Made by a program: the position numbers and the translations under genes. Source: a virus. Taken from it: DNA of 64,000 bases. Of the stretch, positions 9,748-61,032 are shown piece after piece. The DNA is taken from IMG/VR virus record IMGVR_UViG_3300028859_000017, positions 1-64,000 of that record. One strand, 5' to 3'. The notes below the pieces were generated by a model. It saw only the letters and a program-made list of their open reading frames with translations, was not told the DNA's origin and did no database searches. Within the stretch, counting starts at the first letter, position 1. Each line of letters opens with the position of its first letter.

Positions 9748-9774
9748 TTATCGGTTATTTTTTGTTACTTTTCA
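9748..9774 (-). promoter_or_regulatory. sigma28-like promoter
   Basis: TGAA-N15-ACCGATAA directly upstream of the mini-ORF RBS. Confidence 0.6.
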
Positions 9775-10492
9775 TCAAATTTAGGGCTATAGGATTATCA
9801 ATTCCTGCCACACTATATCCCTCTATATCATCTTCAATAGATTTTATATTATTTTTACCAAAGGGAATAGGAGGTTCGGTCATAGCTTGTATTATTGGAT
9901 TGCCTATAACTCCTTGTCCGGCTTTATTTATTGCTGCTATAAGTTCTTTTGGTAAAATTTCTGATTGTGGTAAAATTACTAGAAAATCGTAATCTAATTT
10001 ACTATCTTTATCCTTTTTTTCTGGTTCTTCTACTTCTTTAACTTTATCATCTTCTATTTTAGTTTCTTTTTCCTTACTATCAAGAGGTGCTAAAACTTCA
10101 TCATCTAATACTTCTACTTCTTCTGATACCACCTTCTCTGGGATATTAGGTAGAGCATTATTTTGTGGCTGTAAATCAGTAAATGTAATTCTATAAGGTT
10201 TTGAAATACCTAATAATAGGCTACCATCATAAGTTTTTTTAAGTTCTGCTTCTGTAGTTTTAGGTGCCTCTAAAGTATTAAATTTTAAATCAGTGCTAGG
10301 AGTTGTAGATACATCACTAGGCTGTTGTTGTAATTTATTCTTATCTATTTCTTTATTCTGATAAAGAGCATTTAAGCTATCTATATTTAGATTTTCCCTA
10401 AGCAACGAAGTCTTAGATGCTAAAACTTCGTTTTTTCTTTCTGCTATAGTAGGAAAATCTAAAAAAGAAAAATTTTTTCTTTGTTTATACAT
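9755..10492 (-). CDS. Hypothetical protein, possible internal head protein
   Basis: 245 aa, charged; LLRE|N-type motif near the N-terminus. Confidence 0.45.
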   Translation of the reverse strand: MYKQRKNFSFLDFPTIAERKNEVLASKTSLLRENLNIDSLNALYQNKEIDKNKLQQQPSDVSTTPSTDLKFNTLEAPKTTEAELKKTYDGSLLLGISKPYRITFTDLQPQNNALPNIPEKVVSEEVEVLDDEVLAPLDSKEKETKIEDDKVKEVEEPEKKDKDSKLDYDFLVILPQSEILPKELIAAINKAGQGVIGNPIIQAMTEPPIPFGKNNIKSIEDDIEGYSVAGIDNPIALNLMKSNKK

Positions 10493-10494
10493 TC

Positions 10495-10959
10495 TTATGC
10501 CTTTTTAGCTGCTGCCTCTGCTGGAGTTTCTACTACAACAGTTTGTTCCGATTTAATTTCTGGTACCTCTACAGTAGCTGTTGAAGCAGTAGTAGTCTTA
10601 GATGTCTTAGTAGCTGCCTTGGTAGTTGCAGAAGTTGATGTAGTAGCTTGAGTTGAGTTATCAACATAAATTCCAGGTTTAACTATGGTAGGAGAAGTAG
10701 AAGAAGTGGAAACATTAGCCACTGGTTTTGTAGTTACTTTGGCAGCAGTAGAATTATTACGTAATACAGTAGCTGTTATATTATTTTTTCCTTCATCTAA
10801 TCTAGCTAAAATATGAGGCAAATACATATCCAAACCAGGATATGAAAGTTCAACAGTAGCACCAACTCCAACAGTAATATGAGAAACTGAATTATGCTGA
10901 TTAGATACTAAAGTAAGCAACTGACTAGTTTTAGTTATATTCTTATATATGTATACCAT
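10495..10959 (-). CDS. Hypothetical protein with Thr/Ala/Lys-rich tail
   Basis: ORF track start 10992; ATG at 10959, just past the upstream stop, is more likely. Confidence 0.5.
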   Translation of the reverse strand: MVYIYKNITKTSQLLTLVSNQHNSVSHITVGVGATVELSYPGLDMYLPHILARLDEGKNNITATVLRNNSTAAKVTTKPVANVSTSSTSPTIVKPGIYVDNSTQATTSTSATTKAATKTSKTTTASTATVEVPEIKSEQTVVVETPAEAAAKKA

Positions 10960-10960
10960 A

Positions 10961-11278
10961 TTATTTATCACCCTTTTTATGTAGTTTTCCACACATCTGA
11001 CAAGTTAACTCAGTAGCCTTTGAAGTGGCTTGATTAACTTCATCCCAACCATGTGTTTTAATAATATTACAACCAGGACATTCTTTTTTAGTGGTGGAAT
11101 ATTTCATGAAAGATACTTTATTTTTCTTGTCTGCTAATCTTTTTACTGGATCATCATCAACTATTTTATCGTATTTAGCAATAGAAGCAGACGTGGTGCC
11201 TGAAGGAGATGCTGTTTGAGCAGTATTTGATGTAAAGGCAGCTGCGTTATTTTCTTTTAATATATCTTGTAATTTCAT
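10961..11278 (-). CDS. Hypothetical protein with C-terminal CxxC...CxxC zinc ribbon; possible capsid-targeted protein
   Basis: MKLQDILKE|NN N-terminus; CPGC...CQMC. Confidence 0.55.
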   Translation of the reverse strand: MKLQDILKENNAAAFTSNTAQTASPSGTTSASIAKYDKIVDDDPVKRLADKKNKVSFMKYSTTKKECPGCNIIKTHGWDEVNQATSKATELTCQMCGKLHKKGDK

Positions 11279-11279
11279 A

Positions 11280-11789
11280 TTATACCCTATCCCTATTTAA
11301 TGCGATTCTATCAGCAAGAGGAGCAGATGGAAGTATCATTCTATCTACCTTAACTTCTGGTCCTGTATATTTTGGAGGAACTTCTTGTACTGGAGTAATA
11401 TCGACTGAACTAGAAGAATATTGACTACTTAATTTTTTATCTTCCATAGTATTCCAAGAATATTTTGGAATAAAAGGATTTCCAGTTGATATAGCCTTCT
11501 TAAATTCTTCTAAATTATATTCTATTAAAGTAGTAAATTTATGCTGTAATTTTTGTTCAAAATAAGTATTAATCTTCTGAAGACCGTTAATTAATGGTGA
11601 AGAATTTCGGGCTCTAAAAGCATCCTTATCTGAATTAGTATAACTCTGTAGTTGAAAAGTTAGAACGCTCATTTTAGATAGAGTCTTATAGAGGGAATCT
11701 ATATAAGCATTTATTTGACTTTCAGAAGACCTCATATCAACTACTTCCATTAATACAAAATCAACTAACTCTAATTTATCTATTTTCAT
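11280..11789 (-). CDS. Hypothetical late protein
   Basis: 169 aa, GAGGA RBS, TAATTAA motif at 11804-11810. Confidence 0.55.
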   Translation of the reverse strand: MKIDKLELVDFVLMEVVDMRSSESQINAYIDSLYKTLSKMSVLTFQLQSYTNSDKDAFRARNSSPLINGLQKINTYFEQKLQHKFTTLIEYNLEEFKKAISTGNPFIPKYSWNTMEDKKLSSQYSSSSVDITPVQEVPPKYTGPEVKVDRMILPSAPLADRIALNRDRV

Positions 11790-19027: not shown

Positions 19028-19849
19028 TTAATTGACTTTTTCTATTGTAAAACCATTAGTCTTATAACCCAACTTAGCTGCTCTTGAAATATTAGTTATA
19101 TTATACTGTTTAGAAATCTCATTTAATCCAATAACATATTCTACAATTCCATCTGGGTGTATGATTTTCCACTGTTTCTTATTTAATTCTCCAACTAAAT
19201 GTCTTGATTTTATTATGTTTTCCTTCTTTTGTTTTATTAAATATTCTCTGTTTTCAATAGCTTTTTGATTTAATTTAGTATCTTCAAATTTACAAGTCCA
19301 TCCCCAATAAGTTTCAGAAGGACTTTTTCCTGCAGCTAGTGAGTAAAGGGCATGTCTTATTACAACCTCATTTACTCTATTACTATTATTATCATATATC
19401 TCAAAATATCTTAAAACTTTTGTTCTAGTTACTACACCTTCTGGAGATGTCACTATATACCAATATTTAGAGTATGCTTCTGCTTTCTTTTTTTTATATT
19501 CTTCACTTCTTTTAATACCTGTATTATTATATGCTGTTGGACTGATATTATATCCAATACTACTATCATAAGTTTTATAATAATCTAAATAATATTGTTC
19601 TCTAACTTCTAAATTAGAAGTTAATTCTAATATACCAAAAGTAAAAGAAGATTCTCCATCTATATTATAAGCACTTTGTAAATGTCTTGAATGATGCTTA
19701 TTAGCTCTCAATAATCTTCTATGTTTTCCAAAACGAAGTTTAAAATTATTAGCACTTCCAATATATTTTTTATTGTTTTTTATATTAGTTATTACATAAA
19801 TACCAGAGTAAGTATTAACTTTCTTAGAACTCTCTGTTAAACTAATCAT
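19028..19849 (-). CDS. GIY-YIG homing endonuclease (Seg-like)
   Basis: SGIYVITNIKNNKKYIGSA...R...H...LQSAYN...EQYYLD...GYNI. Confidence 0.9.
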   Translation of the reverse strand: MISLTESSKKVNTYSGIYVITNIKNNKKYIGSANNFKLRFGKHRRLLRANKHHSRHLQSAYNIDGESSFTFGILELTSNLEVREQYYLDYYKTYDSSIGYNISPTAYNNTGIKRSEEYKKKKAEAYSKYWYIVTSPEGVVTRTKVLRYFEIYDNNSNRVNEVVIRHALYSLAAGKSPSETYWGWTCKFEDTKLNQKAIENREYLIKQKKENIIKSRHLVGELNKKQWKIIHPDGIVEYVIGLNEISKQYNITNISRAAKLGYKTNGFTIEKVN

Positions 19850-20971: not shown

Positions 20972-22261
20972 TTAATAAATAGAAGGAGTTGTTATATTAG
21001 CTCTAAATATACTTGTATTTGCATATAGATTATCGGCAGCTGTTCCAGATAAAATAGCTCTATATTGAGTTATTTGTCTTCCTAAACTATCGTAGACAAA
21101 AAAATCACAAACTATATTTCTAATAGACTCACCACCTAGATTAGAATTTCCATTATATTTAGCATCATATACTGTAACGGTAGCAGTTACTTTACCATAT
21201 AACGGATTAGTTAATGAAGTTACTCTGGCATATTGATAGAACTTATTAATTTGAAAGCCTTTAAAAGTAGCTAAATTAGTAGAAAGAGTAAAGTCTAAAC
21301 CACCATTAACTGCTTGCATTTCATAATTCTCTAATCCAGAATTTGTTCCCAAAGTAAAAGTAGTTGGATATGATAAAGCTGACCATGAACTGGTAGTAAG
21401 TGAGGTCCCATTAGCATAAATTACTGAATCTGTTCCATCATTATTTAAAAACTGTGAATAACTTTCTATAATTACCCAGTTAGGAGATAGGGTAGTATCA
21501 TAAACTATACCACTTCCTATGGCATCATTAGTACTATCAACTAAAACTTGAGAAGTGGCTGGATTATAAGCTATTTTTAAAGGATTCATTTGAGAAGAAA
21601 TACTACTTTGATATACTGTATTCTTTGTAAACTGTACTGGTGTAGCTCCAGCAGCCTGTAATAAAGCAAAGTTACGCTTCCTTGTTACTGCATAGTTATT
21701 AAGTGCATTTACTTCTGGTGTGGGGTCAACTGAGATGGCTTGATTTGTATTTTGTCCACCAACAGTAATATAATTATTTCTTACAACAGTGCCTAATACT
21801 AAACTAGAAGAGGAGTAGGTAGTAGATAAAACAATATTATTAGCAGAAGAAGATGGAGATATTAGTAAATACTGCCCTGGAGTAGTTCCATTAGGTAATA
21901 TACCAGATAAGCCTAATACATCTAAATCAAGTAATCCAGCATTCCAAATAACTTTACTTAAACCAGCACCTGTGGAACCTATTACTAAACCTAAAATAGC
22001 TGGAGAATCTGAAGAGATTCCAGTAGAAGAGTCTGGATACTTAATTAAACCACTTGAGAGCAGTTCTACTCCACTACCTGGAGATAAGGCACTACCAGAC
22101 ACTGAAGCATGTTCACCATAGCCTATACCAGCTAACGAGCCAGCTACTGCCTCAATATTAGATTGTACTTGATATAAAGGTCTATTATCAGTAAGGTAAT
22201 TATAGGTATCTGTAGGTGTGTAATATAAAATATCTGATAATACTGGAGTAGGGGAATACAT
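20972..22261 (-). CDS. Virion structural or fibre protein
   Basis: 429 aa; N-terminal YYTPTDTYNYLTDNRPLY matches YYNASDIYEYNSDNRPLY of 16461..19010. Confidence 0.6.
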   Translation of the reverse strand: MYSPTPVLSDILYYTPTDTYNYLTDNRPLYQVQSNIEAVAGSLAGIGYGEHASVSGSALSPGSGVELLSSGLIKYPDSSTGISSDSPAILGLVIGSTGAGLSKVIWNAGLLDLDVLGLSGILPNGTTPGQYLLISPSSSANNIVLSTTYSSSSLVLGTVVRNNYITVGGQNTNQAISVDPTPEVNALNNYAVTRKRNFALLQAAGATPVQFTKNTVYQSSISSQMNPLKIAYNPATSQVLVDSTNDAIGSGIVYDTTLSPNWVIIESYSQFLNNDGTDSVIYANGTSLTTSSWSALSYPTTFTLGTNSGLENYEMQAVNGGLDFTLSTNLATFKGFQINKFYQYARVTSLTNPLYGKVTATVTVYDAKYNGNSNLGGESIRNIVCDFFVYDSLGRQITQYRAILSGTAADNLYANTSIFRANITTPSIY

Positions 22262-25105: not shown

Positions 25106-25139
25106 TAATCTACCTAATTTCTAAAACTTAATTCAAATA

Positions 25140-29050: not shown

Positions 29051-29082
29051 ACAATATCCTTATAAAGTTAATTCAAAAAAAA

Positions 29083-36069: not shown

Positions 36070-36073
36070 TAGA

Positions 36074-41764: not shown

Positions 41765-41814
41765 ATAAATATGCCTTTTTAAGTATCTGCTTACAAATTA
41801 ATTATATAATTTTA

Positions 41815-44839: not shown

Positions 44840-44859
44840 ATCACATACCTCTACATACA

Positions 44860-44886
44860 ATATCGGTAAATCCTATTCATACTGTA
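44860..44886 (-). promoter_or_regulatory. sigma28-like promoter
   Basis: TACA-N15-ACCGATAT. Confidence 0.7.
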
Positions 44887-46868: not shown

Positions 46869-47762
46869 TTATCTACCTATTATATCACTTATATCACTTA
46901 TATAACTCTCTAAATTTTTCTCTTCTGTATAGGGTATTATGATTAGTTTTATATTATTCTCTTTGGCATATATCACTTTATCCATATCACGTTGTTTAGC
47001 TTTTAAATGCTGTTCTTCTGTTTTTTGAAAAAAATTTGGAAATATATAGTGCTGATAACCATGATACTCAAATGCTATTTTATGTTCTTCATTATAACCA
47101 TCCCATTGATATCTATGTTTATTATATTTAAAATTAGTCTTTATAAATTTAATATTTAGTTTTTGTTCTAATAACTCTTTACATTTATACTCTGTCTTAA
47201 AAGAGGCACATTCAGGACACCATTGCCTTTGATCCTTTATAGCATGCCATATAGCATGCCATATAGCATGCCATTGATGACCCTCTTTACATTCCCATAG
47301 CATTTTAGTATTATTGTTTATATAAACAGAGTCTAAACATTTTCCATTTCTTGATTTAGCATAATTACAGCACTCAGAAATATCGGATTTAACATTCCCG
47401 CAGCAATATGGGCACCAAGTATTATCTGAGTTAACTACATGCCAACAAGAAAACCATGAGTGACCACTACTACATTCCCACTCCATCTTAGCTTTATTAT
47501 TGGTGTAGTTAGTTGACTTCAGTTTTCCTCCTCTAGCTATAGCATAGGCTTGTAAAATCTCTATTGAAGTCCTAACACAACTATTACAAGTAGGACACCA
47601 AGTATTATGAAAGCTTACCTCACTCCAGTTAGCCTTCCACTGATGACCCTTCTCACATTCCCATAACATCTTTGTTCTATTATTTATATAAACAATATCC
47701 AAGCATTTACCATTCTTAGATTTAGCATGCTCTTGACATACCTCTATAGTTCCTCTTCTCAC
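46869..47762 (-). CDS. Zn-ribbon-repeat endonuclease (3 repeats)
   Basis: Same architecture as 33658..34890; inserted between the terminase genes. Confidence 0.8.
   Translation of the reverse strand: MRRGTIEVCQEHAKSKNGKCLDIVYINNRTKMLWECEKGHQWKANWSEVSFHNTWCPTCNSCVRTSIEILQAYAIARGGKLKSTNYTNNKAKMEWECSSGHSWFSCWHVVNSDNTWCPYCCGNVKSDISECCNYAKSRNGKCLDSVYINNNTKMLWECKEGHQWHAIWHAIWHAIKDQRQWCPECASFKTEYKCKELLEQKLNIKFIKTNFKYNKHRYQWDGYNEEHKIAFEYHGYQHYIFPNFFQKTEEQHLKAKQRDMDKVIYAKENNIKLIIIPYTEEKNLESYISDISDIIGR
47239..47274. repeat. Perfect 12-bp tandem repeat x3 encoding WHAI-WHAI-WHAI
   Basis: atagcatgccat three times in a row. Confidence 0.9.
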
Positions 47763-47764: not shown

Positions 47765-48295
47765 CTACTCCTCTGATAGCAAATCAGTTATTGACGATTC
47801 CTTTAATGTATTTTTAGTATTTAAATGCTCTGTTTCAAAATCTAAAGAATCTTCAGCATCTATATCAATAGTTGTAAAAGGTAAAGTCTGTTGATGTGAT
47901 TTTTTTTCATTTATAGATTTTTGTGTAGACACTGTAGCCCCTAAAGCCGCTCCCAAACCAATACCAGAGAGTATAGAATCAATATCGGTACCCTGAGACT
48001 TTTTCTTAGTACTAACATCAATACTTTTATCACTAACCAGAGTCTTAAGAATGTCATTACGTTTCTTAAAGGTATCCATTCTAATTTCATAGAATCTAGC
48101 TAAAGCTATTGCTAAAACAGCATCAGTAGATTGTACCACCCTATCTTGGAGAATTTCGACAATAGCATCTAAGTCTGATGAAACTATTTCTAACTCACTA
48201 AGTTGTTTAGCTACTTCATCATCTACTATGTTATTAGTTTTATCTATTCTTGACTCAGTTTTATTCTTCTTTATTTGTGGAGTAGTATCTGACAT
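47765..48295 (-). CDS. Probable terminase small subunit
   Basis: 176 aa helical protein upstream of the large terminase; positional inference. Confidence 0.45.
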   Translation of the reverse strand: MSDTTPQIKKNKTESRIDKTNNIVDDEVAKQLSELEIVSSDLDAIVEILQDRVVQSTDAVLAIALARFYEIRMDTFKKRNDILKTLVSDKSIDVSTKKKSQGTDIDSILSGIGLGAALGATVSTQKSINEKKSHQQTLPFTTIDIDAEDSLDFETEHLNTKNTLKESSITDLLSEE

Positions 48296-49614: not shown

Positions 49615-50595
49615 TCATTCCTTATCTTCTATACTATCTGAAACATTTTGCTTTTGAGAGAATATTATTAGAGGTCCAAATGTCTCTTTTAATAACTCAA
49701 GAGCATCCTGAACCTCTTTTATCTTAACACCACATTCATTTTTTAAAGTAAATACTAAATTATTTGCTAATCGTGGCCCTGCTTCTGGTATATGAATAAG
49801 TTCCAATAATTTTGTTATTATTTTTTTATTTAAAGGAGTTATTAAATCATCTTCTATGTTTGATAAATACTCTAAAACTAATAAAAATTCCTGGAAAATT
49901 ATAGGGGCATCAGTAGAAAGATAGGCTTCATTACCAAATAATCGTGAAATATTATCATAACTAACATTAGTGATTCGTTCAGCACCATAGTTCATAGTAA
50001 TTGTAGTTATACCATAGTTTAAAATCATTACAAAATATGTGAATACTCTGGCATAAATTGGATTACCCCTATCATCAGTTCCTACAACTCTATTAGGGTC
50101 AAACTTATCCATGGCCTGAATAATTTTTAATATGGCACTTTGAAAAATTTCCTCATATGCTAACCCATGCTTATGACGGGCATATTTGAAGATTACCCCA
50201 TCGATAAGCTGATAACAATAAGTTAAAAAATCATTCCTATCATTATAGTCTTTACTATCATGCCATTTAGTCCATAAATATTTTCCTACATCCTCTATAA
50301 AATAGTTATTAGACTTCTTTCCTCTTTTCTTTTTATCGGCAAGTTCTGGATATCTTTCAGGATATAAGCTATATGCCTTTAATAGAAAAGAAGAACTATA
50401 CTTATTATTAGGAAATTTATCAAGCATTTCACCAATAATTCGTTTTTCCATAAAGTCCACATCAATTTTAGAATATAGAATTACTCTATATCCGTGCTTA
50501 ACATCTTTTCCAATATCATCTCGGTCTATGCCAAGATTATCATATATATTTTCATAAGTTGGTAAATTTACTTCAAAATTATTATCTATTTCCAA
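49615..50595 (-). CDS. Phage sigma factor (sigma-70 region 2; gp55-like late sigma candidate)
   Basis: EEIFQSAILKIIQAMDKFDPNR...VFTYF matches sigma region 2.2-2.3; TTG start. Confidence 0.7.
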   Translation of the reverse strand: MEIDNNFEVNLPTYENIYDNLGIDRDDIGKDVKHGYRVILYSKIDVDFMEKRIIGEMLDKFPNNKYSSSFLLKAYSLYPERYPELADKKKRGKKSNNYFIEDVGKYLWTKWHDSKDYNDRNDFLTYCYQLIDGVIFKYARHKHGLAYEEIFQSAILKIIQAMDKFDPNRVVGTDDRGNPIYARVFTYFVMILNYGITTITMNYGAERITNVSYDNISRLFGNEAYLSTDAPIIFQEFLLVLEYLSNIEDDLITPLNKKIITKLLELIHIPEAGPRLANNLVFTLKNECGVKIKEVQDALELLKETFGPLIIFSQKQNVSDSIEDKE

Positions 50596-50630
50596 AGCAT
50601 ACCTTCTTTAATTACTTAATTATAACTACA

Positions 50631-50657
50631 ATATCGGATAAACTAAATTAATTCTTA
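50631..50657 (-). promoter_or_regulatory. sigma28-like promoter interleaved with AATTAA late-type motifs
   Basis: TAAG-N15-TCCGATAT; TTAATT at 50607, 50616 and 50648. Confidence 0.65.
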
Positions 50658-50664
50658 ATATAAA

Positions 50665-50695
50665 AATACCCTAATTTAGTAAGAATTAGGGTATT
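50665..50695 (-). terminator. Intrinsic terminator
   Basis: AATACCCTAATT-N7-AATTAGGGTATT perfect 12-bp stem plus T-run. Confidence 0.75.
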
Positions 50696-50720
50696 CAATA
50701 TAGTAAGTAAGAAATAAAAA

Positions 50721-51782
50721 TTATATAGTTATATTCTCTATTTGCTTATTAATATATTCCTCTAAATTATTATTTTCAGTATATGGAATAATTATTAATT
50801 TTATATTATTTTCATTAGCATATATCACTTTATCCATATCTCTTTGAACTGCTTTTTCATGTATCTCTAAAGTTCTATGCCAATGATTAGGATAAATATA
50901 ATGCTGAATTCCTTGATACTCAAAGGCTGCTTTATGTTCCTCATTATAGCCATCAAATTCATATCTATTACCCTTGTAAATAAAACGTGTCTTCTTAAAT
51001 TTATAACCTAATTTTTGCTCTAAAAGTTCTTTACATTTATATTCTGTTTTAAAAGAAGAACATTCAGGGCACCAACTATGGTTATTTTTAATATTATCCC
51101 AAATAGCTTCCCACTGATGACCTTTTTCACACCCCCATACCATTTTTGTATTACTATTTATATATTTAGTGGATATTAATTTACCTTGTTTGCTAGAGGC
51201 AAATTGCTGTAACTCAATAATGCTACATTTTCGTAATTCAGCACAGCACTCTGGACACCAACTTTTGGAATTTTTAATGTGATCCCAACGAGCTTCCCAT
51301 TGATGACCCTCTGAACACTCCCATAATAATTTAGTATTATTATTTATATATTTAATAGATAATAGTCTTCCATTTTTATTTTCAGCATGTTTTTGTAACT
51401 CCTTTATATCACAAAGGGTGCTAGAACATGCTGGACACCACTGACCAGCATTTTTAATATTATTCCAACAAGCTTCCCATTGATGCCCCTCTGAACACTC
51501 CCATAATAATTTAGTATTATTATTTATATATTTAGTGGATATTAATTTACCTTGTTTGCTAGAGGCATATTCCTGTAATTCAATTATATTAGGTTTAGCT
51601 TTTCCAGCACAATAAGGACACCAACTACCACTATTAATACTATTCCAATGAGCTTCCCATTGATGCCCATCTTTACATTGCCACAATAATTTATGCTTAC
51701 TATCAACATATTCTGTAGATAATAATAAGCCACCTTTAGCAGCAGCAAAGGCCTGTAAGGTAGCTACATCATATTTTTTCAT
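50721..51782 (-). CDS. Zn-ribbon-repeat endonuclease (4 repeats)
   Basis: Same family as 33658..34890 and 46869..47762; start abuts the recA stop. Confidence 0.8.
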   Translation of the reverse strand: MKKYDVATLQAFAAAKGGLLLSTEYVDSKHKLLWQCKDGHQWEAHWNSINSGSWCPYCAGKAKPNIIELQEYASSKQGKLISTKYINNNTKLLWECSEGHQWEACWNNIKNAGQWCPACSSTLCDIKELQKHAENKNGRLLSIKYINNNTKLLWECSEGHQWEARWDHIKNSKSWCPECCAELRKCSIIELQQFASSKQGKLISTKYINSNTKMVWGCEKGHQWEAIWDNIKNNHSWCPECSSFKTEYKCKELLEQKLGYKFKKTRFIYKGNRYEFDGYNEEHKAAFEYQGIQHYIYPNHWHRTLEIHEKAVQRDMDKVIYANENNIKLIIIPYTENNNLEEYINKQIENITI

Positions 51783-52946
51783 TTAATCATCTATTCCAGA
51801 TAAGTCAGCTATATCTCTAATATCAGAAGCATCAGGAAGAATAGCCTCTTCAGAACCAGCTGAAAAATTAAGTTTCTCACTATAGCAATTACGCATCATT
51901 TTTAGAAAATGCTGCTTATTTTCCTCAGACTCGTTAAATAATTTAGTGAATGTATCAATAGAATTAAACTTTTTCTCGGAACCATCTGGCATGATAATAG
52001 TCTTCCAAGCAGCTTTACCCATATAATCAGCATCATTTAATAAATCATAGACAATATGTGGATTGTAATAACCACGGTCATCATAATACAAACGTAGCGG
52101 AATGGTCCTCCCTAAAGCAGCCGAGGACTTACATTTTATTATTTTTGTTCTCACGAAATGACCAGAAGGAAGCTTGGGGTCAGAGCCTATAAATTTACCT
52201 CTATCCATAAATAATCTAGAAATACAGGCATAACGAACAGCATCTCCTCCAACAGTAGTATATACAGGTCCTTGCCAAGAACTAGTCATGCCACCAATTT
52301 GCTGTCTTACTTGATTTATAATTAATACAGCTAGGTTAGTCTCACGGCACAGCATTTTAGTTCGTTTTAGACCTTTTGAAATCATTTTAGCAGTCATGGC
52401 CACAGTGCTTGTCTCATAATCACTTTCTAATTCGGCCCTGGTGCTTAATCCTGCCAGGGAATCTAAAACTACTAAACTAGGAACAGATATATTTTTACGC
52501 TGAATATAATTAGCGATTTTTTCAATTTGAGCAAAAGCACGTTCTGCCAAATCCTCTACTGTAATAATACACTTTTTAGTGTCAACACCGAAATTTTCCA
52601 TTCTAAACCGATCGCCTGACCCGCCCTCAGTGTCAATAAGGCAAGCAAGGCCACCAAGCTTCTGAACTTGAGCCAACATATGAATACCGAAGGAGCTCTT
52701 CCCCGACCCCTCTTTTCCCGAAATTTCTGCCATAGCTCCCTGTATAAGGCCTCCTCCAAGTAAGAAATCTAACGAATCTATTCCAGTTGGTATAAAAGAC
52801 CTTACAAAGTCTTCATCATCTAGTGCTGTATTGCCACCAAATTCCTTTCTCAATTGGCTCTTAAATTCGTCAAGGTCATTAAAATTATCGGTAGCATTAA
52901 TGATACTTATATCTCTATCTAATTTATTTGATTTTTTGGCTGGCAT
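51783..52946 (-). CDS. uvsX: RecA/UvsX recombinase
   Basis: IPTGIDSLDFLLGGG, GKEGSGKS, IDTE, VVLDSLAGL, INQVR; ATG at 52946 with GGAG RBS preferred over the track start at 53009. Confidence 0.93.
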   Translation of the reverse strand: MPAKKSNKLDRDISIINATDNFNDLDEFKSQLRKEFGGNTALDDEDFVRSFIPTGIDSLDFLLGGGLIQGAMAEISGKEGSGKSSFGIHMLAQVQKLGGLACLIDTEGGSGDRFRMENFGVDTKKCIITVEDLAERAFAQIEKIANYIQRKNISVPSLVVLDSLAGLSTRAELESDYETSTVAMTAKMISKGLKRTKMLCRETNLAVLIINQVRQQIGGMTSSWQGPVYTTVGGDAVRYACISRLFMDRGKFIGSDPKLPSGHFVRTKIIKCKSSAALGRTIPLRLYYDDRGYYNPHIVYDLLNDADYMGKAAWKTIIMPDGSEKKFNSIDTFTKLFNESEENKQHFLKMMRNCYSEKLNFSAGSEEAILPDASDIRDIADLSGIDD

Positions 52947-52966
52947 TATGTCATCTCCATAGTATA

Positions 52967-52993
52967 TTATCGACAAATACAAGAAAAGCCTGA
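52967..52993 (-). promoter_or_regulatory. sigma28-like promoter
   Basis: TCAG-N15-GTCGATAA. Confidence 0.7.
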
Positions 52994-53012
52994 GAGATAT
53001 CCCAGGCACCTT

Positions 53013-53229: not shown

Positions 53230-54096
53230 TTAGTCCTCATCCAAAAGTTTTCGCATTTCATCAAGGTCTATTTCACTACCTACTTCTGGTTCCTTTGACT
53301 GAGCCTTTCGTGGTTCTGGCTTATACTTATCGAGCATTGCGTGTTCTATTTCAGCTTCATCAAGCTCTTCATCAGCCTCTACTGGAGTTGAACTAAATTC
53401 CTTAAACTTAGCAGCAAGTTCAGTATCATTGAGAGGAGAAACAACACTAGTGAGGTCTGGAGAAGCATCAACAAGAGAGTCCCAAATTTTCTTAGCATTT
53501 TTGCCATCAAAGGCAGCAGATGAATCGCCGAAATCCCAGCTGATCGTTGTAACCGTATTCTTTCCTGTGGCTTTGGTTTTTAGAAGCTCCACATCACGAC
53601 CGGTCTGAAAATCAACAAAATCAATTTCCTTTTCTAGCTTGCTTTCAATAAGGCTCATTACCGACTGAGAAGAAGCTCTAACAATCTTAATATCATCAGA
53701 GGAAATGTTAGCTGGATCAATTTCATTTGGCTGAAAACCAACTAGCAAATAATGCTTTTTAGCAAATAACTTCTTAGCTGCTTCGAGATATTCCTTGTCA
53801 TTAGTCTTTGTAAACTTACGATAAGTCTTTGAGGCTAAATCACAGAAGGGGCAGAAACGATCCTCTGTTTGACGGGGGCAGGCAATACTCTCAAAATGAC
53901 CATCAGGGAATGTGACAGCATGATGATTAAAAATACTAATAGGAAGCTCTAGATTTTCTGACTTTAGTGGTAGAAATCTCAGAGTGTACTTATGACCAGC
54001 ATCATACTTCATCCAATTGAGACCAGAAGAAGCTTTCTTGGCCTTTGACTGTTCCATCTTCTGCTTAAACTTTTCGAAATTAGTAGTAGTAGCCAA
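53230..54096 (-). CDS. gp32: Single-stranded DNA-binding protein (gp32-like)
   Basis: LRFLP...H...CP...CPFC zinc module and acidic tail ending LLDED; TTG at 54096 with AAAGGA RBS preferred over the track GTG at 54138. Confidence 0.85.
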   Translation of the reverse strand: MATTTNFEKFKQKMEQSKAKKASSGLNWMKYDAGHKYTLRFLPLKSENLELPISIFNHHAVTFPDGHFESIACPRQTEDRFCPFCDLASKTYRKFTKTNDKEYLEAAKKLFAKKHYLLVGFQPNEIDPANISSDDIKIVRASSQSVMSLIESKLEKEIDFVDFQTGRDVELLKTKATGKNTVTTISWDFGDSSAAFDGKNAKKIWDSLVDASPDLTSVVSPLNDTELAAKFKEFSSTPVEADEELDEAEIEHAMLDKYKPEPRKAQSKEPEVGSEIDLDEMRKLLDED

Positions 54097-54109
54097 TTTA
54101 TTTCCTTTT

Positions 54110-54147
54110 GCGAACTTAATCGCTGAAAAGATACCCACTTAGGCATC
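54110..54147 (-). promoter_or_regulatory. Twin hairpins with TAAGT loops immediately before the ssb RBS
   Basis: GATGCC-TAAGTG-GGTATC and GCGA-TTAAGT-TCGC. Confidence 0.5.
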
Positions 54148-54224
54148 AAAATTATTAATCATATAATTAATTCAGTAGTTTCTTGGTAGCTGTTTCTCTG
54201 TCTGCTACCCTTGCTACATAACTA

Positions 54225-54251
54225 ATATCGGTAAGCACTCAGAAAACATGA
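54225..54251 (-). promoter_or_regulatory. sigma28-like promoter for ssb
   Basis: TCAT-N15-ACCGATAT. Confidence 0.65.
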
Positions 54252-54860: not shown

Positions 54861-54887
54861 TAAAGTTTCTCCAATATTATACGATAA
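54861..54887 (+). promoter_or_regulatory. sigma28-like promoter with consensus extended -35
   Basis: TAAAGTTT (-35), 15-nt spacing from TAAA, TACGATAA (-10). Confidence 0.75.
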
Positions 54888-54889
54888 TA

Positions 54890-55100
54890 AAGCAGCAACT
54901 TGTCGCTTAAATATTAACCTTCAAGCAAAGCAAAGAAAGCCTAAACAAACAAGTAAAACCTAAAAGATAGAAGTTCAAAACAAAAATAAATCGTTCGAAG
55001 CGAAGCTGAGAACTGGGTTGAGAGAACGAAGTTCGAGCAACCCATAAGGAACTGGAACTAGAACTAAGAAGATAAATAAGTAGTATGAAAGCTGACAATG
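54890..55100 (+). other. Structured non-coding region (leader RNA, sRNA or origin candidate)
   Basis: Hairpins AGC-GAA-GCT (54999-55007) and TGGGTTG...GAAC-GAA-GTTC...CAACCCA (55014-55044), GAACT repeats, strong purine skew. Confidence 0.4.
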
Positions 55101-55107
55101 AATAACT

Positions 55108-56250
55108 ATGGCTTCTATTAAATTTAGACAAAAATTATCTGGAAGACTTAGAACTGGAAAAAGGTCTAAAAAACTTAATACCAGAACTAAGATATCTGAG
55201 AATAATAACAATCCTCTTCTAATTGTTGATATAACTTATCTTGAGGAATTATTGTTATTCAGACAGCAGTGTAAAACTTCTGCTCTCTATAATAAATCCA
55301 TAGAAGAATTAGTTAAAAGAGTATATACATGGCTATATTCTGCTTTTACTATAATAAACCCTTCTGGAATTCTGTTTATTTCAGAACAAAATACAACTTT
55401 AACACAGGCTTTAAATCAGTCTGTAATATATGGAAATGTTAAAAATATCATATTCTCTTTACTTAATCAACAGATAAATAATAAATCTATCTGTATTCTT
55501 TCTAATAATTTAGATTTATGGTCTCTAGTCTCCTTTTCTGCTAAAATATCTTTTCTGGCTATAAATTCAGATAATAGACTTTATTACTATAATAATAAAA
55601 CTGGTTTAGATATTCTTTCTAAACTTATAGGAACTTATAAAATAGTAAATAAACTTGGATTAGATAGTTTAAAGTATATGAGTCTTCAATATCTTTATAT
55701 GTTGCTTTTTTATATTCAATTTACTAACAAGAAGAAAAATGAAGATTTTTATTTTGATAAAGATTATTTTAAAAACAACTATAAAAAATTTTCTAAATCA
55801 AATGGATTAGGTCTGGAACTCATAGCTAAAGCCCATAAGTTTTTAAGTTATGCTTTTTTAACTAAACCAGAATTTTTAGATTATTTCTTTCTGGGCAACT
55901 CTTCCCACTTCTCCTTAAATCTTCAGCGTTTAATGAAGCTTTTATATTTTGATAGAGTTTTATTAGAGGGTATGAAAGCATCCTATGATAAAGTTCAAAA
56001 ACCTTCTGTAATACCTAATATAGACTTCTCTAATACCCAGCCAGAGCTCCCAAGTCAGTTTAAATGTTATACTATGCTGTGGAATAATGATACCTCCTGT
56101 GATAGCCTACAAGAGCAGAAAATATTTGATAGAATAAGTAATAGGTATAATAAAAAACTTGAGGAACCTATTGAACAAGCTGAAATTACCGATAATAATA
56201 GTATTAATACTGTTGAGAATTATGTAAAAAACCTTTTATCGGAGATATAG
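55108..56250 (+). CDS. Degenerate 5'-3' exonuclease/PIN-like paralogue
   Basis: LLIVDITY and ICILSNNLDLWSLV align with VLLIDGHN and VIILSNDSDFLQLV of the next gene. Confidence 0.5.
   Translation: MASIKFRQKLSGRLRTGKRSKKLNTRTKISENNNNPLLIVDITYLEELLLFRQQCKTSALYNKSIEELVKRVYTWLYSAFTIINPSGILFISEQNTTLTQALNQSVIYGNVKNIIFSLLNQQINNKSICILSNNLDLWSLVSFSAKISFLAINSDNRLYYYNNKTGLDILSKLIGTYKIVNKLGLDSLKYMSLQYLYMLLFYIQFTNKKKNEDFYFDKDYFKNNYKKFSKSNGLGLELIAKAHKFLSYAFLTKPEFLDYFFLGNSSHFSLNLQRLMKLLYFDRVLLEGMKASYDKVQKPSVIPNIDFSNTQPELPSQFKCYTMLWNNDTSCDSLQEQKIFDRISNRYNKKLEEPIEQAEITDNNSINTVENYVKNLLSEI
56169..56195 (+). promoter_or_regulatory. sigma28-like promoter
   Basis: TATT-N15-ACCGATAA upstream of the exonuclease gene. 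Confidence 0.5.
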
Positions 56251-57305
56251 TGGTAAGTCCTAAATTCATGGATTCACAAAATGTTCTCTTAATTGATGGA
56301 CACAATCTCTTAATAAGGGTAATGTTTTCTAAGAATAAGGGTTCAGTAGTGATATCCGAACCTGAGTTAATACAGGAATGTGCTGAAATTTTTATTAATC
56401 AAATCAGTCTTTGTATCAGGAAATATTCTTGTAAGCGACTTTATGTAGCATTTGATAATGGTGGCTCTATAAGAAAGAAAGCTATCTTTGAAGCATATAA
56501 AGCAAATAGACCTGCCTCAGGAACTAACTATGGACAAGTTTCCGCTTTTAATGATACTAGTAGTGATTTATTTAGTAAGTTAAAAGAAAAAGTATTAGAG
56601 CTTTGTAATATACTTAATCTAACTGTTTTCTGTGAGTATGGAATAGAAGCAGATGATTACATAGGAATTGCTACTAAAGAGCTTACTAATATAGGTAAGC
56701 AAGTTATTATTCTGAGTAATGATAGCGACTTTCTTCAGCTTGTTAGAACCCCTTCTGTAATTTGTTCTATTCCCTATAATAAATCAGAGGTATCTTTAGA
56801 TAATTTTACTCGTTACTTTTCTGAATTGCCAAAAACAAAAGGAGTAACTATTAGTAGTTATGAATATTTGTTTTATAAGGTTATAGTTGGAGATACTTCA
56901 GATAATATTAATGGAATTAAAGGAATTGGTTATAAGACTTTATTTAAATTAATGAAAGAACAATTACCATTAGAAAATAAATCTACTTTAGATATTTATG
57001 TTAAAAATAATTTAGATTATATTAAACTTCTTTCTTCACGGAATTCAACTAAATTAGAGAAACTTATTCACGAGAATATAGAATTACTTGAACGTAATTA
57101 TAAGTTAATAGATTTAACTTCTTCTGTAATTTCTTCAAATACAGTATCCTTAACCTTAAAAAAGTTATTAGAGGTCGGTGAGCTTCCTGGAAAAAAAGAA
57201 ACCATTCATAAATTTCATGAGTTATTTCCATTAGCTACTAATTATATAGACTTTGTTATCAGCACTTTATTTGCCTTTAAACCGGTCTATAAAGAACCTG
57301 AGTAA
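56250..57305 (+). CDS. rnh: 5'-3' exonuclease / RNase H (T4 rnh, FEN family)
   Basis: IDGHN, AFD, YKANR, EADD, SNDSDFLQL, GDTSDNINGIKGIG. Confidence 0.92.
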   Translation: MVSPKFMDSQNVLLIDGHNLLIRVMFSKNKGSVVISEPELIQECAEIFINQISLCIRKYSCKRLYVAFDNGGSIRKKAIFEAYKANRPASGTNYGQVSAFNDTSSDLFSKLKEKVLELCNILNLTVFCEYGIEADDYIGIATKELTNIGKQVIILSNDSDFLQLVRTPSVICSIPYNKSEVSLDNFTRYFSELPKTKGVTISSYEYLFYKVIVGDTSDNINGIKGIGYKTLFKLMKEQLPLENKSTLDIYVKNNLDYIKLLSSRNSTKLEKLIHENIELLERNYKLIDLTSSVISSNTVSLTLKKLLEVGELPGKKETIHKFHELFPLATNYIDFVISTLFAFKPVYKEPE

Positions 57306-57316
57306 TTTGTCGATAC
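57290..57316 (+). promoter_or_regulatory. sigma28-like promoter for primase
   Basis: TAAA-N15-GTCGATAC, then GGAGG RBS. Confidence 0.7.
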
Positions 57317-57334
57317 TTACTGTGGGAGGTTGCA

Positions 57335-58237
57335 ATGTCTGACTCTGAGTATGTGATAAACTGTCCAAGATGTGATTCTTGTAAGTCTCCTAAGCTTTAT
57401 GTAAATCCAACGAAGGCAATGTTTAATTGCTTCAGATGTGGATGGCATGGTAGGCTTTCTGAATTGTATAAATATCCTGAGATAATATCTTCTTTACAAG
57501 ATAAGATTAGCTTATCTGAATTTACTAAGTTGAAATCTTTTAAACCTTTAACAGTTAAGAATGTAGATGCCTTAGAGGATTTAAATCCAGTTCGTGAAAT
57601 TTCCTTTGAAGATGCTCAATATTCTTACTTAGTTTCAAGAGGATGGTCAGAGGAGCTTATTTTTATTTACAGACCTTTAGTTTCTTTAAATCCTGCTTAT
57701 TTAGATAGGGTTATTTTGCCTGTGATTAGAGAAGATAAGATAGTTTATTGGACCGCAAGAAGTATTAAATCAGATGGCTCAATGAAATATAAAAATCCTT
57801 CTATCCCAAGAAAGGATATTATATTTGAGTCTAAGTTATCTGAAAATAAGTTTTTTCCAGATAGTTTAGTAATATGTGAGGGTATTTTTGATGCTTGCTC
57901 TATTCCAAATGCTGTGGCTTTATTTGGAAAAACTATAACCAAGGAAAATGAGACTAACTTACTTCAAAAATTAATGGGAAAATCTAAGGTATATGTAGCA
58001 TTGGATTTTGGAGCAGAATCTTGGATACAAACTATCTGTAGTAAGCTTCATAATTGGATGCCTAATAAGGAGGTATACTACATAGATACTTCTAAATATA
58101 AAGACAATGATTTAGGAAAATTAGCTGAGACTTTAAGTTCCTTTGATTTAATGGCTTGGATACAAACAAATAGTATTAGATATATGCCACAATCAACAAT
58201 GGAAACTTTAAAGAGTAGACTGAAGCTGTATAATTAA
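57335..58237 (+). CDS. DNA primase (Zn finger plus TOPRIM)
   Basis: CPRC...FNCFRCG, RVILP, WTARS, KYKNP, ICEGIFDA, ALD. Confidence 0.9.
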   Translation: MSDSEYVINCPRCDSCKSPKLYVNPTKAMFNCFRCGWHGRLSELYKYPEIISSLQDKISLSEFTKLKSFKPLTVKNVDALEDLNPVREISFEDAQYSYLVSRGWSEELIFIYRPLVSLNPAYLDRVILPVIREDKIVYWTARSIKSDGSMKYKNPSIPRKDIIFESKLSENKFFPDSLVICEGIFDACSIPNAVALFGKTITKENETNLLQKLMGKSKVYVALDFGAESWIQTICSKLHNWMPNKEVYYIDTSKYKDNDLGKLAETLSSFDLMAWIQTNSIRYMPQSTMETLKSRLKLYN

Positions 58238-58241: not shown

Positions 58242-59378
58242 ATGGATATTCCAAAATTTATTATCTCAGAAAATTTTTCATGGCTTCTAAAAGAATTAGA
58301 GGCATATGACGATCCAAAGGTTACTTATAAATGGCAGGGCCGCAAAGATTTAAGAGGTGGCCTTAGGATGATGTATAGAGAGTATGTTGATTTTGCTAAA
58401 AATGTAATTATAACTAAATCTCCCTCTCCTACTAATGTTAGTTTTGGTGCTACCACAGTAGAGTGTGATGAGTGGCATGTCCTACACAATGACTATCAAA
58501 ATAAAGAGTTAAAGGAAAGATATCCTAAAAATGGTTATACTTGTTTAGTTACGAGTAGAAATTCATTACTAAATGGAACAGCTACTCGTTATTATTGTTC
58601 TTGTGATTGTATGGCATTTCAGACTTTATTTAAGTCAGAAATGCTAAAATATGGATATACAAATGGAACTACTTTACCTTCTACAGGCGTGAAAAAACAA
58701 CAGGCTGCTGTATGTAAGCATTTATTTTCTATATTGACCAAGAAATATGCTGATTTTATCTCCAAAGAATCTGGCCCTGAAGAAAGTGCCTTTATTGTAT
58801 CTAAGGAAATTAAGGCACAAGAACAACCCTTGCCAGCTGAACCTATTCAAGCAGTTTCGCCAAGTGAAGTAAAGAAAAGGGGAAGAATTGCTAAGACTAC
58901 AGATGAGCGTAAAGCAGATTATGAGAAAGTAATTAGACGCTCTTTAAAGTTCTTTAGTAATGTTATGCCAAATACTGTTGAAGTGTATAAAAATTCCAGA
59001 GCTAAAAATGCTTCTGGAGAATTATATAAGAAATACAAATTTATGGTTAAGAAGTATTTTCAAGGTTGGGTTATTGTGTTTACTAATCCAGCACTCAATC
59101 CATTACGAGATAAAATAAAAGATAAAGACTTAGTTCCAATAATGACTAGATTAGCTAATAAGACAGTTCCCTCTGGAGATACTATAGTAGTATACACTAA
59201 GTATTTTTCAAAAGATGAACTTATGAATATGATTAAATCAGAAACTAGAGAAATACAGCAAAATCAAATAGATAAACTTAACAAATCTGGAATAGCCTAT
59301 ACTTTAACAGAAGGAATAGAGATTTTAGATAGTGACGATAATACTTCAATACTTCACGTATTACTAGGGGTTTCTTAA
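58242..59378 (+). CDS. SWIM-type zinc-finger protein
   Basis: CSCDCMAF...VCKHL; TAATTAA at 58231-58237. Confidence 0.6.
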   Translation: MDIPKFIISENFSWLLKELEAYDDPKVTYKWQGRKDLRGGLRMMYREYVDFAKNVIITKSPSPTNVSFGATTVECDEWHVLHNDYQNKELKERYPKNGYTCLVTSRNSLLNGTATRYYCSCDCMAFQTLFKSEMLKYGYTNGTTLPSTGVKKQQAAVCKHLFSILTKKYADFISKESGPEESAFIVSKEIKAQEQPLPAEPIQAVSPSEVKKRGRIAKTTDERKADYEKVIRRSLKFFSNVMPNTVEVYKNSRAKNASGELYKKYKFMVKKYFQGWVIVFTNPALNPLRDKIKDKDLVPIMTRLANKTVPSGDTIVVYTKYFSKDELMNMIKSETREIQQNQIDKLNKSGIAYTLTEGIEILDSDDNTSILHVLLGVS

Positions 59379-59779
59379 TGACTATAACTCTTATATTTGA
59401 AAAAACTGTAGCTGTAAAATATGATACAGTTAATTATCCTGCTGATACTACTGCTGCTTTAGTTAGGCCTTACACAGATTTGCTAGTTGTTTCTAGCAAT
59501 ACTGATACTCCTCCGCAAGTTACGGATTTCGATGCCACTCAAATATCTGTGTTTTATAATGGCCAGGAACTAGGGACTACTACCACTTCAAAATATTTTT
59601 ATTCAGTTACCGCAACCCCAGCAAGCCCTTCTACAGCTACCTTAACTGGTTTTACTATTACAATACATGCCAATCAATCTTATACTAGTCCAGGATATGT
59701 TGGTCAGACTGCTTATGCCCTTTTAATAGGTCCTAACGATTTATTCTTCTTAAATTATACTTATACAATATATAGTTAG
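59378..59779 (+). CDS. Hypothetical beta-rich protein, possibly virion
   Basis: 133 aa Thr-rich; ISVFYNGQEL motif also seen in the C-terminal repeats of the baseplate protein. Confidence 0.45.
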   Translation: MTITLIFEKTVAVKYDTVNYPADTTAALVRPYTDLLVVSSNTDTPPQVTDFDATQISVFYNGQELGTTTTSKYFYSVTATPASPSTATLTGFTITIHANQSYTSPGYVGQTAYALLIGPNDLFFLNYTYTIYS

Positions 59780-59786
59780 GAATATA

Positions 59787-60272
59787 ATGCTAAAAACGCA
59801 AGAGAAACTTTTACAAGATGCTAAAATACAAATAGCACAATATTTGTATAGGTCATTACAAGAACCTACTAATGTCTTAACTATGCTGCTACAGGATATT
59901 TCTGGTAATGGAAATCTAAATTGGCAGATGGATTCAAATAAAAATAAATTATCTAAAGTATTTTATGAGATAGCTAAAAAAATAAATGCCTACACTTTAG
60001 ATAATGGTGATTTTAGAACTTATGTTTTATTACAATTAGTTGAAATTGTATATAATGAATATAAAGAAGAATTATTTACCCAGTTTTTACAGCAAGGGTA
60101 TAATGCCCTACCTGAAAGTATAGTAGCTTCTTTGTCTGATGACTATTCTAAACAGCCTCCACAAAATACAAATTTTCCAGGAACTGAAAATACGTCAGAT
60201 AAATTTATACCTATTTCAGTAAAAGACAGATTAATACCTGAAGCCTTATACTCAGTAAAAGACATTGATTAA
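59787..60272 (+). CDS. Hypothetical protein
   Basis: 161-aa ORF with AGGA RBS. Confidence 0.5.
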   Translation: MLKTQEKLLQDAKIQIAQYLYRSLQEPTNVLTMLLQDISGNGNLNWQMDSNKNKLSKVFYEIAKKINAYTLDNGDFRTYVLLQLVEIVYNEYKEELFTQFLQQGYNALPESIVASLSDDYSKQPPQNTNFPGTENTSDKFIPISVKDRLIPEALYSVKDID

Positions 60273-60636
60273 AAAACTAAAGTTGACTGATTTTTTATCC
60301 CATACCTCTATTATCGACAGTCCTTTAACTTTTCAACCAAAGGAATTCGACAATATGAGTTATCCTATGTCGGATTTTTATAAGGCCATATCAGAACATA
60401 CTGGATTATTTATAGTTAATGGTATAAGTTATACCTCTCTTATACCATCTATAAATAATCTATATTTTTTTATTAAGGAGTCAGTCAATGTTGAATACTT
60501 GTTATCTTTCAATGCTATTATTGACATTAAACAGAAAAAGCTTAATGAATTTATAGTGTTTTATTATCCAGATAGTAAGGTAACTATATTATTACAGGAT
60601 TTTAATAATGTCAAAGAAAACAAAACAACAACTTAA
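60265..60636 (+). CDS. Hypothetical protein
   Basis: 123-aa ORF in operon; start uncertain. Confidence 0.45.
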   Translation: MIKKLKLTDFLSHTSIIDSPLTFQPKEFDNMSYPMSDFYKAISEHTGLFIVNGISYTSLIPSINNLYFFIKESVNVEYLLSFNAIIDIKQKKLNEFIVFYYPDSKVTILLQDFNNVKENKTTT

Positions 60637-61021
60637 GGCCAATCTATATGAGAATGATTATGATTATTTTGAAGAAGAGTTAGAAGCTCCAGTAACTAAA
60701 TTTAAACATATAACTAATACAGTAGTTAAAAAAATAAAACCAATAGTTATACAGACAACAGGAGTTACTGAAGCTGAAAAAAAGTTAGAATTACAAAATA
60801 AAGTCTTTGGTGGAAAAATATCAGATAAAACTGTCTCTTGTAATTGTAATAAATGTGGTCATCATATTAATGGAGTATTAGTAAGTACTATTTATTCTCC
60901 CATTTCTGATTTGGTAACTCCCTTTATTTCTTATGAGTGTTCTTATTGTAAACACATAGGCTATAGAAGTGTTAAAGAAAAATCATTAATAGCAAAAGAA
61001 TTTGATGCAATTTATTTCTAA
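60608..61021 (+). CDS. Zinc-ribbon protein
   Basis: CNKC...CSYC. Confidence 0.55.
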   Translation: MSKKTKQQLKANLYENDYDYFEEELEAPVTKFKHITNTVVKKIKPIVIQTTGVTEAEKKLELQNKVFGGKISDKTVSCNCNKCGHHINGVLVSTIYSPISDLVTPFISYECSYCKHIGYRSVKEKSLIAKEFDAIYF

Positions 61022-61032
61022 TTTACCGATAT
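61006..61032 (+). promoter_or_regulatory. sigma28-like -10 element (weak -35)
   Basis: ACCGATAT at 61025-61032 before the AAGGA RBS. Confidence 0.5.

Follow-up and report, generated by a model that had tools for sequence, protein, structure and literature searches.

The stretch of DNA considered here, hereafter the window, is the initial 64 kb of an IMG/VR virus record of 80,322 bp (IMGVR_UViG_3300028859_000017, here G000; CheckV completeness 46%, 32% G+C), and our subject is a set of promoter-like sites with the core sequence CGATA that lie just upstream of its replication, recombination, nuclease and sigma-factor genes, together with the sigma factors that may read them. The phage is uncultured and comes from peat soil. 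DNA near-identical to the window is present in many peat and permafrost metagenomes, and a megablast search with 12 kb of the window against GenBank phages gave no nucleotide match. On the minus strand, from about 55 kb leftwards, lie the genes for a gp32-like single-stranded DNA-binding protein (SSB), a RecA/UvsX recombinase (only ~27% identical to Staphylococcus and Enterococcus phage recombinases), an HNH nuclease, a 326-aa sigma-like protein (sigma2) and a methyltransferase-like protein, followed by the terminase, portal, protease, capsid, tail tube and sheath, baseplate and tail genes, with six nuclease genes scattered between them. The plus strand, from 55.1 kb rightwards, carries a gene to which no function was assigned, a 5'-3' exonuclease of the RNase H type, a primase, several more genes without assignment, a Cas4-like exonuclease and a ribonucleotide reductase. 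A first-pass annotation, made from the letters of the DNA, had listed ten sites with a shared -10 sequence ahead of genes named as ssb, recA, rnh, primase, endonucleases and a sigma gene; all ten were recovered with their positions and orientations, and the gene identities were confirmed for the SSB, RecA/UvsX, the exonuclease, the primase, two HNH nucleases and the sigma-like protein.

The enrichment of the motif upstream of genes was assessed by an unbiased word test, in which 5- and 6-mers were counted in the region from -50 to -10 of the 72 called starts. CGATA was found 9 times where 0.98 occurrences were expected (p = 6e-7) and ranked second behind ATTAA/AATTAA, and the same two word families stand out upstream of starts in two related genomes (G001 and G002, described below). 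Longer forms behave alike: CCGATA has 15 copies (6.5 +/- 2.7 in shuffles), TTTRYCGATA has 4 (0.29 expected), and the full pattern T-N19-YCGATAHT occurs 15 times in the window versus 1.76 +/- 1.22 expected, the maximum over 100 shuffles being 5. All 15 of these copies are co-directional with the local genes, and over the whole 80-kb record YCGATAHT is found 18 times in sense versus once in antisense to the local gene direction, the bare CGATA giving just 38:21. About 2 of the 15 matches are expected by chance. A further six matches to the full pattern fall within genes, and three of these genes belong to the virion module. Past the window, the record has more sites of the CGATA type (68892, 73108 and 73947).

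The statement that none of the sites directly precedes a virion gene holds only narrowly, in that the sites at 9753, 37169 and 44865 do lie within the virion module, namely before two HNH genes and a 50-aa nuclease remnant, and transcripts that start there may continue into portal or tail genes. The 50-aa open reading frame (ORF) in question (9577-9729) joins the N- and C-termini of a zinc-ribbon nuclease family (33658, 46869, 50721; blastp), its C-terminal 26-28 residues being 56-69% identical to that family, and by this comparison is evidently a deletion remnant that has retained its promoter-like site and ribosome-binding site.

Bacterial promoters of sigma-28 (FliA/SigD), the flagellar sigma, follow the pattern TAAAGTTT-N11-GCCGATAA. 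The -35 region of the present sites was analysed on 38 sites from three genomes, chosen by CGATA and nearness to a start alone. At the -35 the sole strong position is a T that lies 21 nt ahead of the C of CGATA. It is present in 12 of the 15 sites of this genome and in 27 of the 38 start-proximal sites, compared with 39% of the remaining 671 CGATA occurrences (Fisher 1e-4). A match to TAAA in at least three of four positions, scored at offsets from -32 to -12, rises above 13% only at -21 (13/38) and -17 (6/38). Among the 30 sites of G000 and its closest relative G004, a T, A and G are found at -21, -19 and -17 in 23, 18 and 13 cases and a T at -4 in 25, an A at -18 being enriched as well; the consensus of these 30 sites is TAAAGTT, ~N10, TT(G/A)(C/T)CGATA(A/C)TA. 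The spacer between the TAAA and the -10 is fixed, as the signal peaks at a single offset that equals the sigma-28 register (site 68892 is apparently shifted by 1 nt). The annotated 'TAAA-like box exactly 15 nt upstream' is thereby borne out as regards the spacing, whereas the box itself is degenerate and has only its T at -21 as a strong position; the sites at 56169 and 61006, which had been called weak, indeed have a weak -35. The CGATA core and the TAAAGTT-like -35, with its T exactly 21 nt upstream of the C, are shared with bacterial sigma-28 promoters such as that of P. aeruginosa fliC, in whose open complex the elements are (-36)TCTAAAG(-30) and (-15)GCCGATAA(-8) (PMC12784957).

The sites (Table 1) are found in short intergenic gaps, with 19-23 nt between the end of CGATA and the start codon in most of them, and the Shine-Dalgarno sequence GGAG begins 8-9 nt past CGATA in most cases, which coincides with the predicted +1/+2. 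The design thus appears to be a compact one, in which the predicted transcript start falls at the ribosome-binding site. Terminator hairpins are located directly upstream of the sites at 37169, 50636, 52972 and 73947, and in the region from 49 to 62 kb matches to sigma-70-type promoters are not enriched (73 versus 63 +/- 8 in shuffles). The unusually tight spacing to start codon and Shine-Dalgarno sequence, and the position of three sites beside nuclease genes or a nuclease remnant, could also be taken to mean that the motif is no promoter at all and instead acts at the RNA or DNA level as a start-codon signal, for instance as a processing site or translational operator or as a sequence related to homing nucleases. 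We regard this as very improbable, for there is another conserved element in the sigma-28 register, 21 nt further upstream, beyond plausible mRNA if the preceding unit terminates, and sites stand directly behind terminators; moreover, sites with long leaders exist (54230, 54882, 56190) and most sites precede genes other than nuclease genes. The CGATA motif is real and, with high probability, represents a promoter class; in its build it resembles a sigma-28 promoter.

Table 1. Promoter-like sites, sigma gene and AATTAA motifs in the window
Feature	Position	Strand	Context
sigma2, 326-aa divergent sigma-70-family protein, candidate late sigma	49615..50595	-	weak matches to Sigma70_r2 and phrog_351; Foldseek
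Promoter-like site, TGAA box, AACCGATAAT	9747..9774	-	19 nt before 50-aa ORF 9577-9729 (nuclease-family remnant)
Promoter-like site, TACA box, only GCCGATAA	37163..37190	-	behind the terminator that follows the major capsid gene; 20 nt upstream of HNH gene 36074-37144
Promoter-like site, TACAGT box, TTTACCGATATT	44859..44886	-	upstream of HNH/endonuclease VII-like gene 43742-44839
Promoter-like site, TAAG box, ATCCGATATT	50630..50657	-	after terminator 50664-50696; before sigma-like gene 49615-50595, with two AATTAA late-type motifs between site and start codon
Promoter-like site, TCAGG box, TTTGTCGATAAT	52966..52993	-	adjoins terminator 52988-53007; before RecA/UvsX gene 51783-52946
Promoter-like site, TCATGTTT box, TTACCGATATT	54224..54251	-	before gp32-like SSB gene 53230-54138; predicted start 54217
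Promoter-like site with strongest -35 of the set, TAAAGTTT-N11-ATACGATAAT	54861..54888	+	heads ~210-nt leader before gene 55108-56250; divergent strand switch
Weaker site, TATTG box, TTACCGATAAT	56169..56196	+	within the end of gene 55108-56250; 55 nt before 5'-3' exonuclease gene 56250-57305
Promoter-like site, TAAAG box, TTTGTCGATACT	57290..57317	+	19 nt before primase gene 57335-58237
Weak candidate, no T at -21, GTGACGATAAT	59315..59343	+	37 nt upstream of gene 59378-59779
Promoter-like site, TGCAATTT box, TTTACCGATATT	61006..61033	+	22 nt upstream of gene 61054-61395; G001 and G004 have an orthologous site
Two in-gene full-pattern matches, co-oriented	47379-47406, 47981-48008	-	possible internal promoters, or chance
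Three in-gene full-pattern matches, co-oriented	5220-5247, 11397-11424, 21029-21056	-	pattern match; in virion-module genes
AATTAA motif, examples (range 6631-61436)	38921-38926, 41798-41803, 31892-31897, 32637-32642, 29068-29073, 25128-25133		38921-38926 before capsid

Relatives of the phage were collected from IMG/VR via sigma2. When used alone as a query the 326-aa protein recovered near-identical fragments only, and an alignment of its homologues recovered 22 loci. The genomes compared are G001 (230 kb, 93% complete), G002 (213 kb, 95% complete) and G004 (partial, the closest), with all three of which the record is collinear, matching G001 from about 100 to 166 kb. Conservation of the motif extends to four records of related phages. 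A CGATA site precedes the orthologous sigma2 gene in six loci or records of relatives (G001, G002, G004, L007, L010, L023), and sites at orthologous positions are found before sigma2, recA and the ribonucleotide reductase gene in G000, G001 and G002, the site upstream of recA having an orthologue in G004 as well. In G004 five orthologous genes are preceded by CGATA sites that have kept the same TTTGTCGATA(A/C)T form within spacers that have otherwise diverged. The statistics, the terminator layout, this conservation and the -35 spacing together uphold the proposal of a distinct promoter class of the sigma-28/FliA type before the replication, recombination, nuclease and sigma genes. As a side observation on the relatives, G001 (230 kb; L033, L034, L043, L044) has about 30 tRNA genes in two clusters, none of which lies in the part collinear with G000.

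Sigma2 is the only sigma-like gene found in the record and it heads the virion module. Its match to Sigma70_r2 scores 22 bits (cut-off 24; 24.4 bits when summed in frame), and the top 50 Foldseek matches of its structural model (pLDDT 75) are all sigma factors or sigma-factor models, be it weak ones (E ~5e-3, TM 0.2-0.3). It belongs to a small family that is restricted to phages, and tblastn against GenBank phages gave no match. The top enriched word upstream of starts in three genomes, (G/T)(A/T)AATTAA(T/A)T, is found here 19 times where 2.4 are expected, and (G/T)AATTAA lies 10-60 nt before the capsid gene, the gene downstream of portal, and the sheath, tube, baseplate and tail genes; it also stands before ssb and sigma2, in both cases between the CGATA box and the start codon. 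This word makes a candidate late promoter that, judged from its distribution, is probably read by sigma2.

Being the only sigma-like gene of the record, having a fold that matches sigma factors and always co-occurring with the motif, sigma2 could in principle itself be the factor that reads the CGATA promoters, its own included. This is improbable, slightly more so in our estimate than a role of the host factor discussed below. The sigma2 gene is located behind a CGATA site in every relative examined, and another factor would therefore be needed to start sigma2. Besides, the protein has no similarity to FliA beyond the weak region-2 match (22 bits), the profile of its family finds no solved sigma by sequence, and the equally enriched AATTAA before the virion genes needs a factor too, the gene at the head of the virion module being that of sigma2.

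A candidate for such another factor is present in the relatives. A search with Sigma70_r2 of five records yielded a second, strong match in both near-complete relatives, G001 and G002, where the protein is 218-266 aa long. The best NCBIfam match of the two sigmas is TIGR02479 (FliA/WhiG), with 144 and 131 bits compared to 74 and 56 bits for SigB/F/G, and the top solved-structure matches are all FliA/WhiG. The residues by which P. aeruginosa sigma-28 contacts its promoter have been described, i.e. S224 and Q228 for the -35, R97 for the extended -10, and D66, Y76 and R82 for the flipped -11A (PMC12784957), and a HMMER alignment to P. aeruginosa FliA (chain numbering offset 5) was read against them. 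Where the alignment places D66, Y76, R82, R97, S224 and Q228, the sigma of G001 has D, Y, R, R, S and Q. A phage FliA-like family of 18 members retains RIRGAM-LD, with ESR(V/I)SQ(I/L)H near-invariant; its members are 29-86% identical to one another and at most 37% identical to any bacterial FliA found, so that the family is old and diverse and was not recently acquired from a host. Both sigmas also seem to be carried by two more large contigs, judged by matching size and source: the FliA-like proteins P0112 and P0101 agree in longest-contig size (233,172 and 225,674) and in source with the sigma2 homologues P0006 (74% identical to that of the window) and P0019. Neither sigma has a close homologue in the 50,697 GenBank phage records, the best matches to the FliA-like one there being uncultured gut phage contigs (31-35%) and then Bacillus phage SigF-like proteins (25-30%). 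Distant phages with FliA-like genes (8-16-kb loci) contain a few near-consensus bipartite sites, e.g. in L079 and L082, and offer no statistical power.

The annotation had left two drivers for the promoters, namely the host flagellar sigma, which would couple infection to motility, or a phage-encoded FliA-like sigma elsewhere in the genome, and had called for a search for such a sigma or a FlgM antagonist. That search produced the FliA-like sigma in G001 and G002, none in the 46%-complete record, and no match to FlgM (PF04316) in the five phage records. With both relatives of at least 93% completeness encoding a FliA-like sigma, the second driver gains and the host FliA becomes a minority reading that is no longer needed. 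The reading in which the host flagellar sigma (FliA/sigma-28) recognizes the promoters, alone or beside a phage sigma, and thereby ties replication to host motility, does have some arguments on its side: the motif fits the bacterial sigma-28 consensus in both elements and their spacing, the record contains no FliA-like gene, and the retained contact residues imply an overlap in specificity with the host sigma-28, if the host has one. We nevertheless hold it to be unlikely. Two near-complete relatives, and two more large contigs going by their size and source, have a FliA-like sigma of their own, the phage family is too old and diverse for a recent host acquisition, and to make essential replication genes dependent on a sigma that is held by FlgM would be risky, with no FlgM-like gene in the phage records. 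The relatives' own FliA-like sigma makes a phage-run sigma cascade, not a link to host motility, the most likely arrangement.

The reading that we favour, and that we consider rather probable, is therefore that a phage FliA-like sigma drives the CGATA promoters, including that of sigma2. The CGATA boxes would be the -10 elements of a bipartite phage promoter class, read by the host core RNA polymerase equipped with the phage FliA-like sigma, whose gene would be located in the part of the genome that is absent from the 46%-complete record. The transcripts would begin 13 nt past the C of CGATA and have very short leaders (11-15 nt), with the Shine-Dalgarno GGAG at their very start. The regulon would comprise the genes for the SSB, RecA, the RNase H-type exonuclease, the primase, the Cas4-like exonuclease, the ribonucleotide reductase, the free-standing HNH nucleases and the 326-aa sigma2, the latter then probably reading (G/T)AATTAA before the virion genes. 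The order of events would thus be an early FliA-like sigma, the CGATA promoters, sigma2 and the late genes, where the 'middle' timing is inferred from the gene content only.

Several observations weigh against this reading. The 80,322-bp record itself lacks a FliA-like gene (there is no TIGR02479 match and the sole PF04542 match is sigma2), so that its presence in this phage is argued from synteny with the relatives. A search for the phage's own FliA-like gene returned only the copies of relatives, and although the contigs L059-L062 are syntenic with the FliA-like region of G001 and have an 82%-identical nuclease segment in common with the record, they are not linkable to it. In G001 the gene is located at 68.4 kb, outside the ~100-166 kb that are collinear with this record, and its absence here is as expected of an incomplete record (46%); we infer that the phage does have the gene. 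The sigmas of G001 and G002 score below the curated TIGR02479 cut-off (144 and 131 versus 189.6 bits), for which reason we name them FliA-like and not FliA; Pfam regions 2 and 4 were found in them and a region-3 match (PF04539) was not, the TIGR02479 alignment nonetheless spanning positions 3-221 of the 224 of the model. The sigma of G002 is more divergent, with three of the six contacts changed (S224 to C, R82 to S, R97 to K). On the side of the promoters, the -35 box is degenerate, most sites have AC or GT instead of GC in the extended -10, and the intergenic sites of this genome are only modestly separated by a weight matrix that was trained on the sites of relatives. A strict match to the canonical TAAA-N14-16-GCCGATAW is nowhere to be found in the record, by which the sites are to be called sigma-28-like and not consensus. 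Finally, the ends of contigs from RNA libraries are not start sites, and the starts, the timing and the sigma dependence are predictions only.

As to these RNA-library contigs, four metatranscriptome runs were considered as contigs only, and uncovered stretches and relative depths were not counted as evidence. In each of the four runs contig depth is greatest at ssb, and in three of them the depth drops from 7-18 to about zero just upstream of 54217, where one contig also ends, i.e. at the start predicted from the site at 54230; another contig begins at 59348, 1 nt off the predicted start at 59349. Given that X15 runs through the site at 54230 and that X16 and X18 end 18 nt apart, these coincidences amount to no more than a weak hint. 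The RNA-library contigs of three studies end together at 60382-60388, one of them with an adapter; this may reflect a 3' end, a site of processing or a breakpoint between strains. In the stretch 53377-53479, within ssb, the RNA contigs of three runs have about 20 substitutions in common relative to the window; these libraries contain a co-occurring strain variant of the phage.

Two other features of the window deserve mention. The purine-rich leader of ~210 nt (54895-55107) that follows the site with the strongest -35 has a modest structure, with a folding energy modestly below that of shuffles (z = -2.3), and the region 54.7-55.3 kb had no match in Rfam; it may serve as leader, small RNA or origin region. 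The 64 kb also contain seven genes for homing-type nucleases of the HNH, endonuclease VII-like and GIY-YIG kinds (19028-19849, 33658-37144, 43742-44839, 46869-47762, 50721-51782), several of which are missing from collinear relatives, and just two have a CGATA promoter-like site of their own.

Phage sigma cascades are textbook knowledge, be it from few cultured systems such as SPO1 and T4. In the Bacillus phage SPO1 gp28 serves the middle genes and gp33/gp34 the late genes, sigmas that are not known to belong to the FliA family, and the promoters differ from those here, being AGGAGA/TTTNTTT (middle) and CGTTAGA/GATATT (late). The similarity with SPO1 lies in phage sigmas that redirect the host core RNA polymerase to successive promoter classes, and in a sigma gene that adjoins recA at the head of the virion module (PMC13401047). 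With the late transcription of T4 (gp55, single-element TATAAATA) there is a likeness in that AATTAA resembles a single -10-type element before virion genes and the sigma is very divergent, and the replication genes are of the T4 type (gp32-like, UvsX-like, RNase H-like); in contrast, the CGATA class is bipartite and sigma-28-like, whereas the middle promoters of T4 use MotA/AsiA with sigma-70, and no homology to gp55, gp33 or MotA was noticed, no test being aimed at it. The SigF/SigG-like sigmas of Bacillus phages likewise are group-3-type sigma genes in large phages, but they resemble sporulation sigmas, are just 25-30% identical to the phage FliA-like family, and are described in a paper whose main text names neither FliA nor WhiG nor flagella (PMC9429907).

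In comparison with bacterial sigma-28 promoters, the sites have a purine-pyrimidine pair where the GC of the extended -10 stands, and the sigma of relatives retains equivalents of S224, Q228, R97, D66, Y76 and R82. They differ in that they precede phage replication, recombination, nuclease and sigma genes instead of flagellar genes, in their much more degenerate -35, in a TT(G/A) that is phage-specific and lies immediately upstream, in a T at +6/+7 after CGATA, and in minimal predicted leaders that start at the Shine-Dalgarno sequence. It is conceivable, although we think it unlikely, that the phage sigma and the host sigma-28 share specificity to the extent that host FliA fires phage promoters or that the phage sigma induces late flagellar and chemotaxis genes of the host; if so, the firing of phage replication promoters by host FliA would tie infection to motile cells. 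That the phage sigma, shorter and without an accompanying phage FlgM, might escape the host FlgM is pure speculation.

A literature search returned no described phage that has its own sigma of the flagellar sigma-28 lineage together with a readable cognate promoter set. The finding is a variant of the phage sigma-cascade theme, of which the FliA-like second sigma in the relatives is the new element. A clade of uncultured peat and permafrost phages of 210-230 kb appears to run its replication genes by means of a FliA-like sigma, and its mobile nuclease genes bear the same type of promoter. This provides a testable regulatory map for phages without a cultured host and a candidate orthogonal sigma/promoter pair, and it raises the concrete question of cross-talk with the flagellar regulation of the host.

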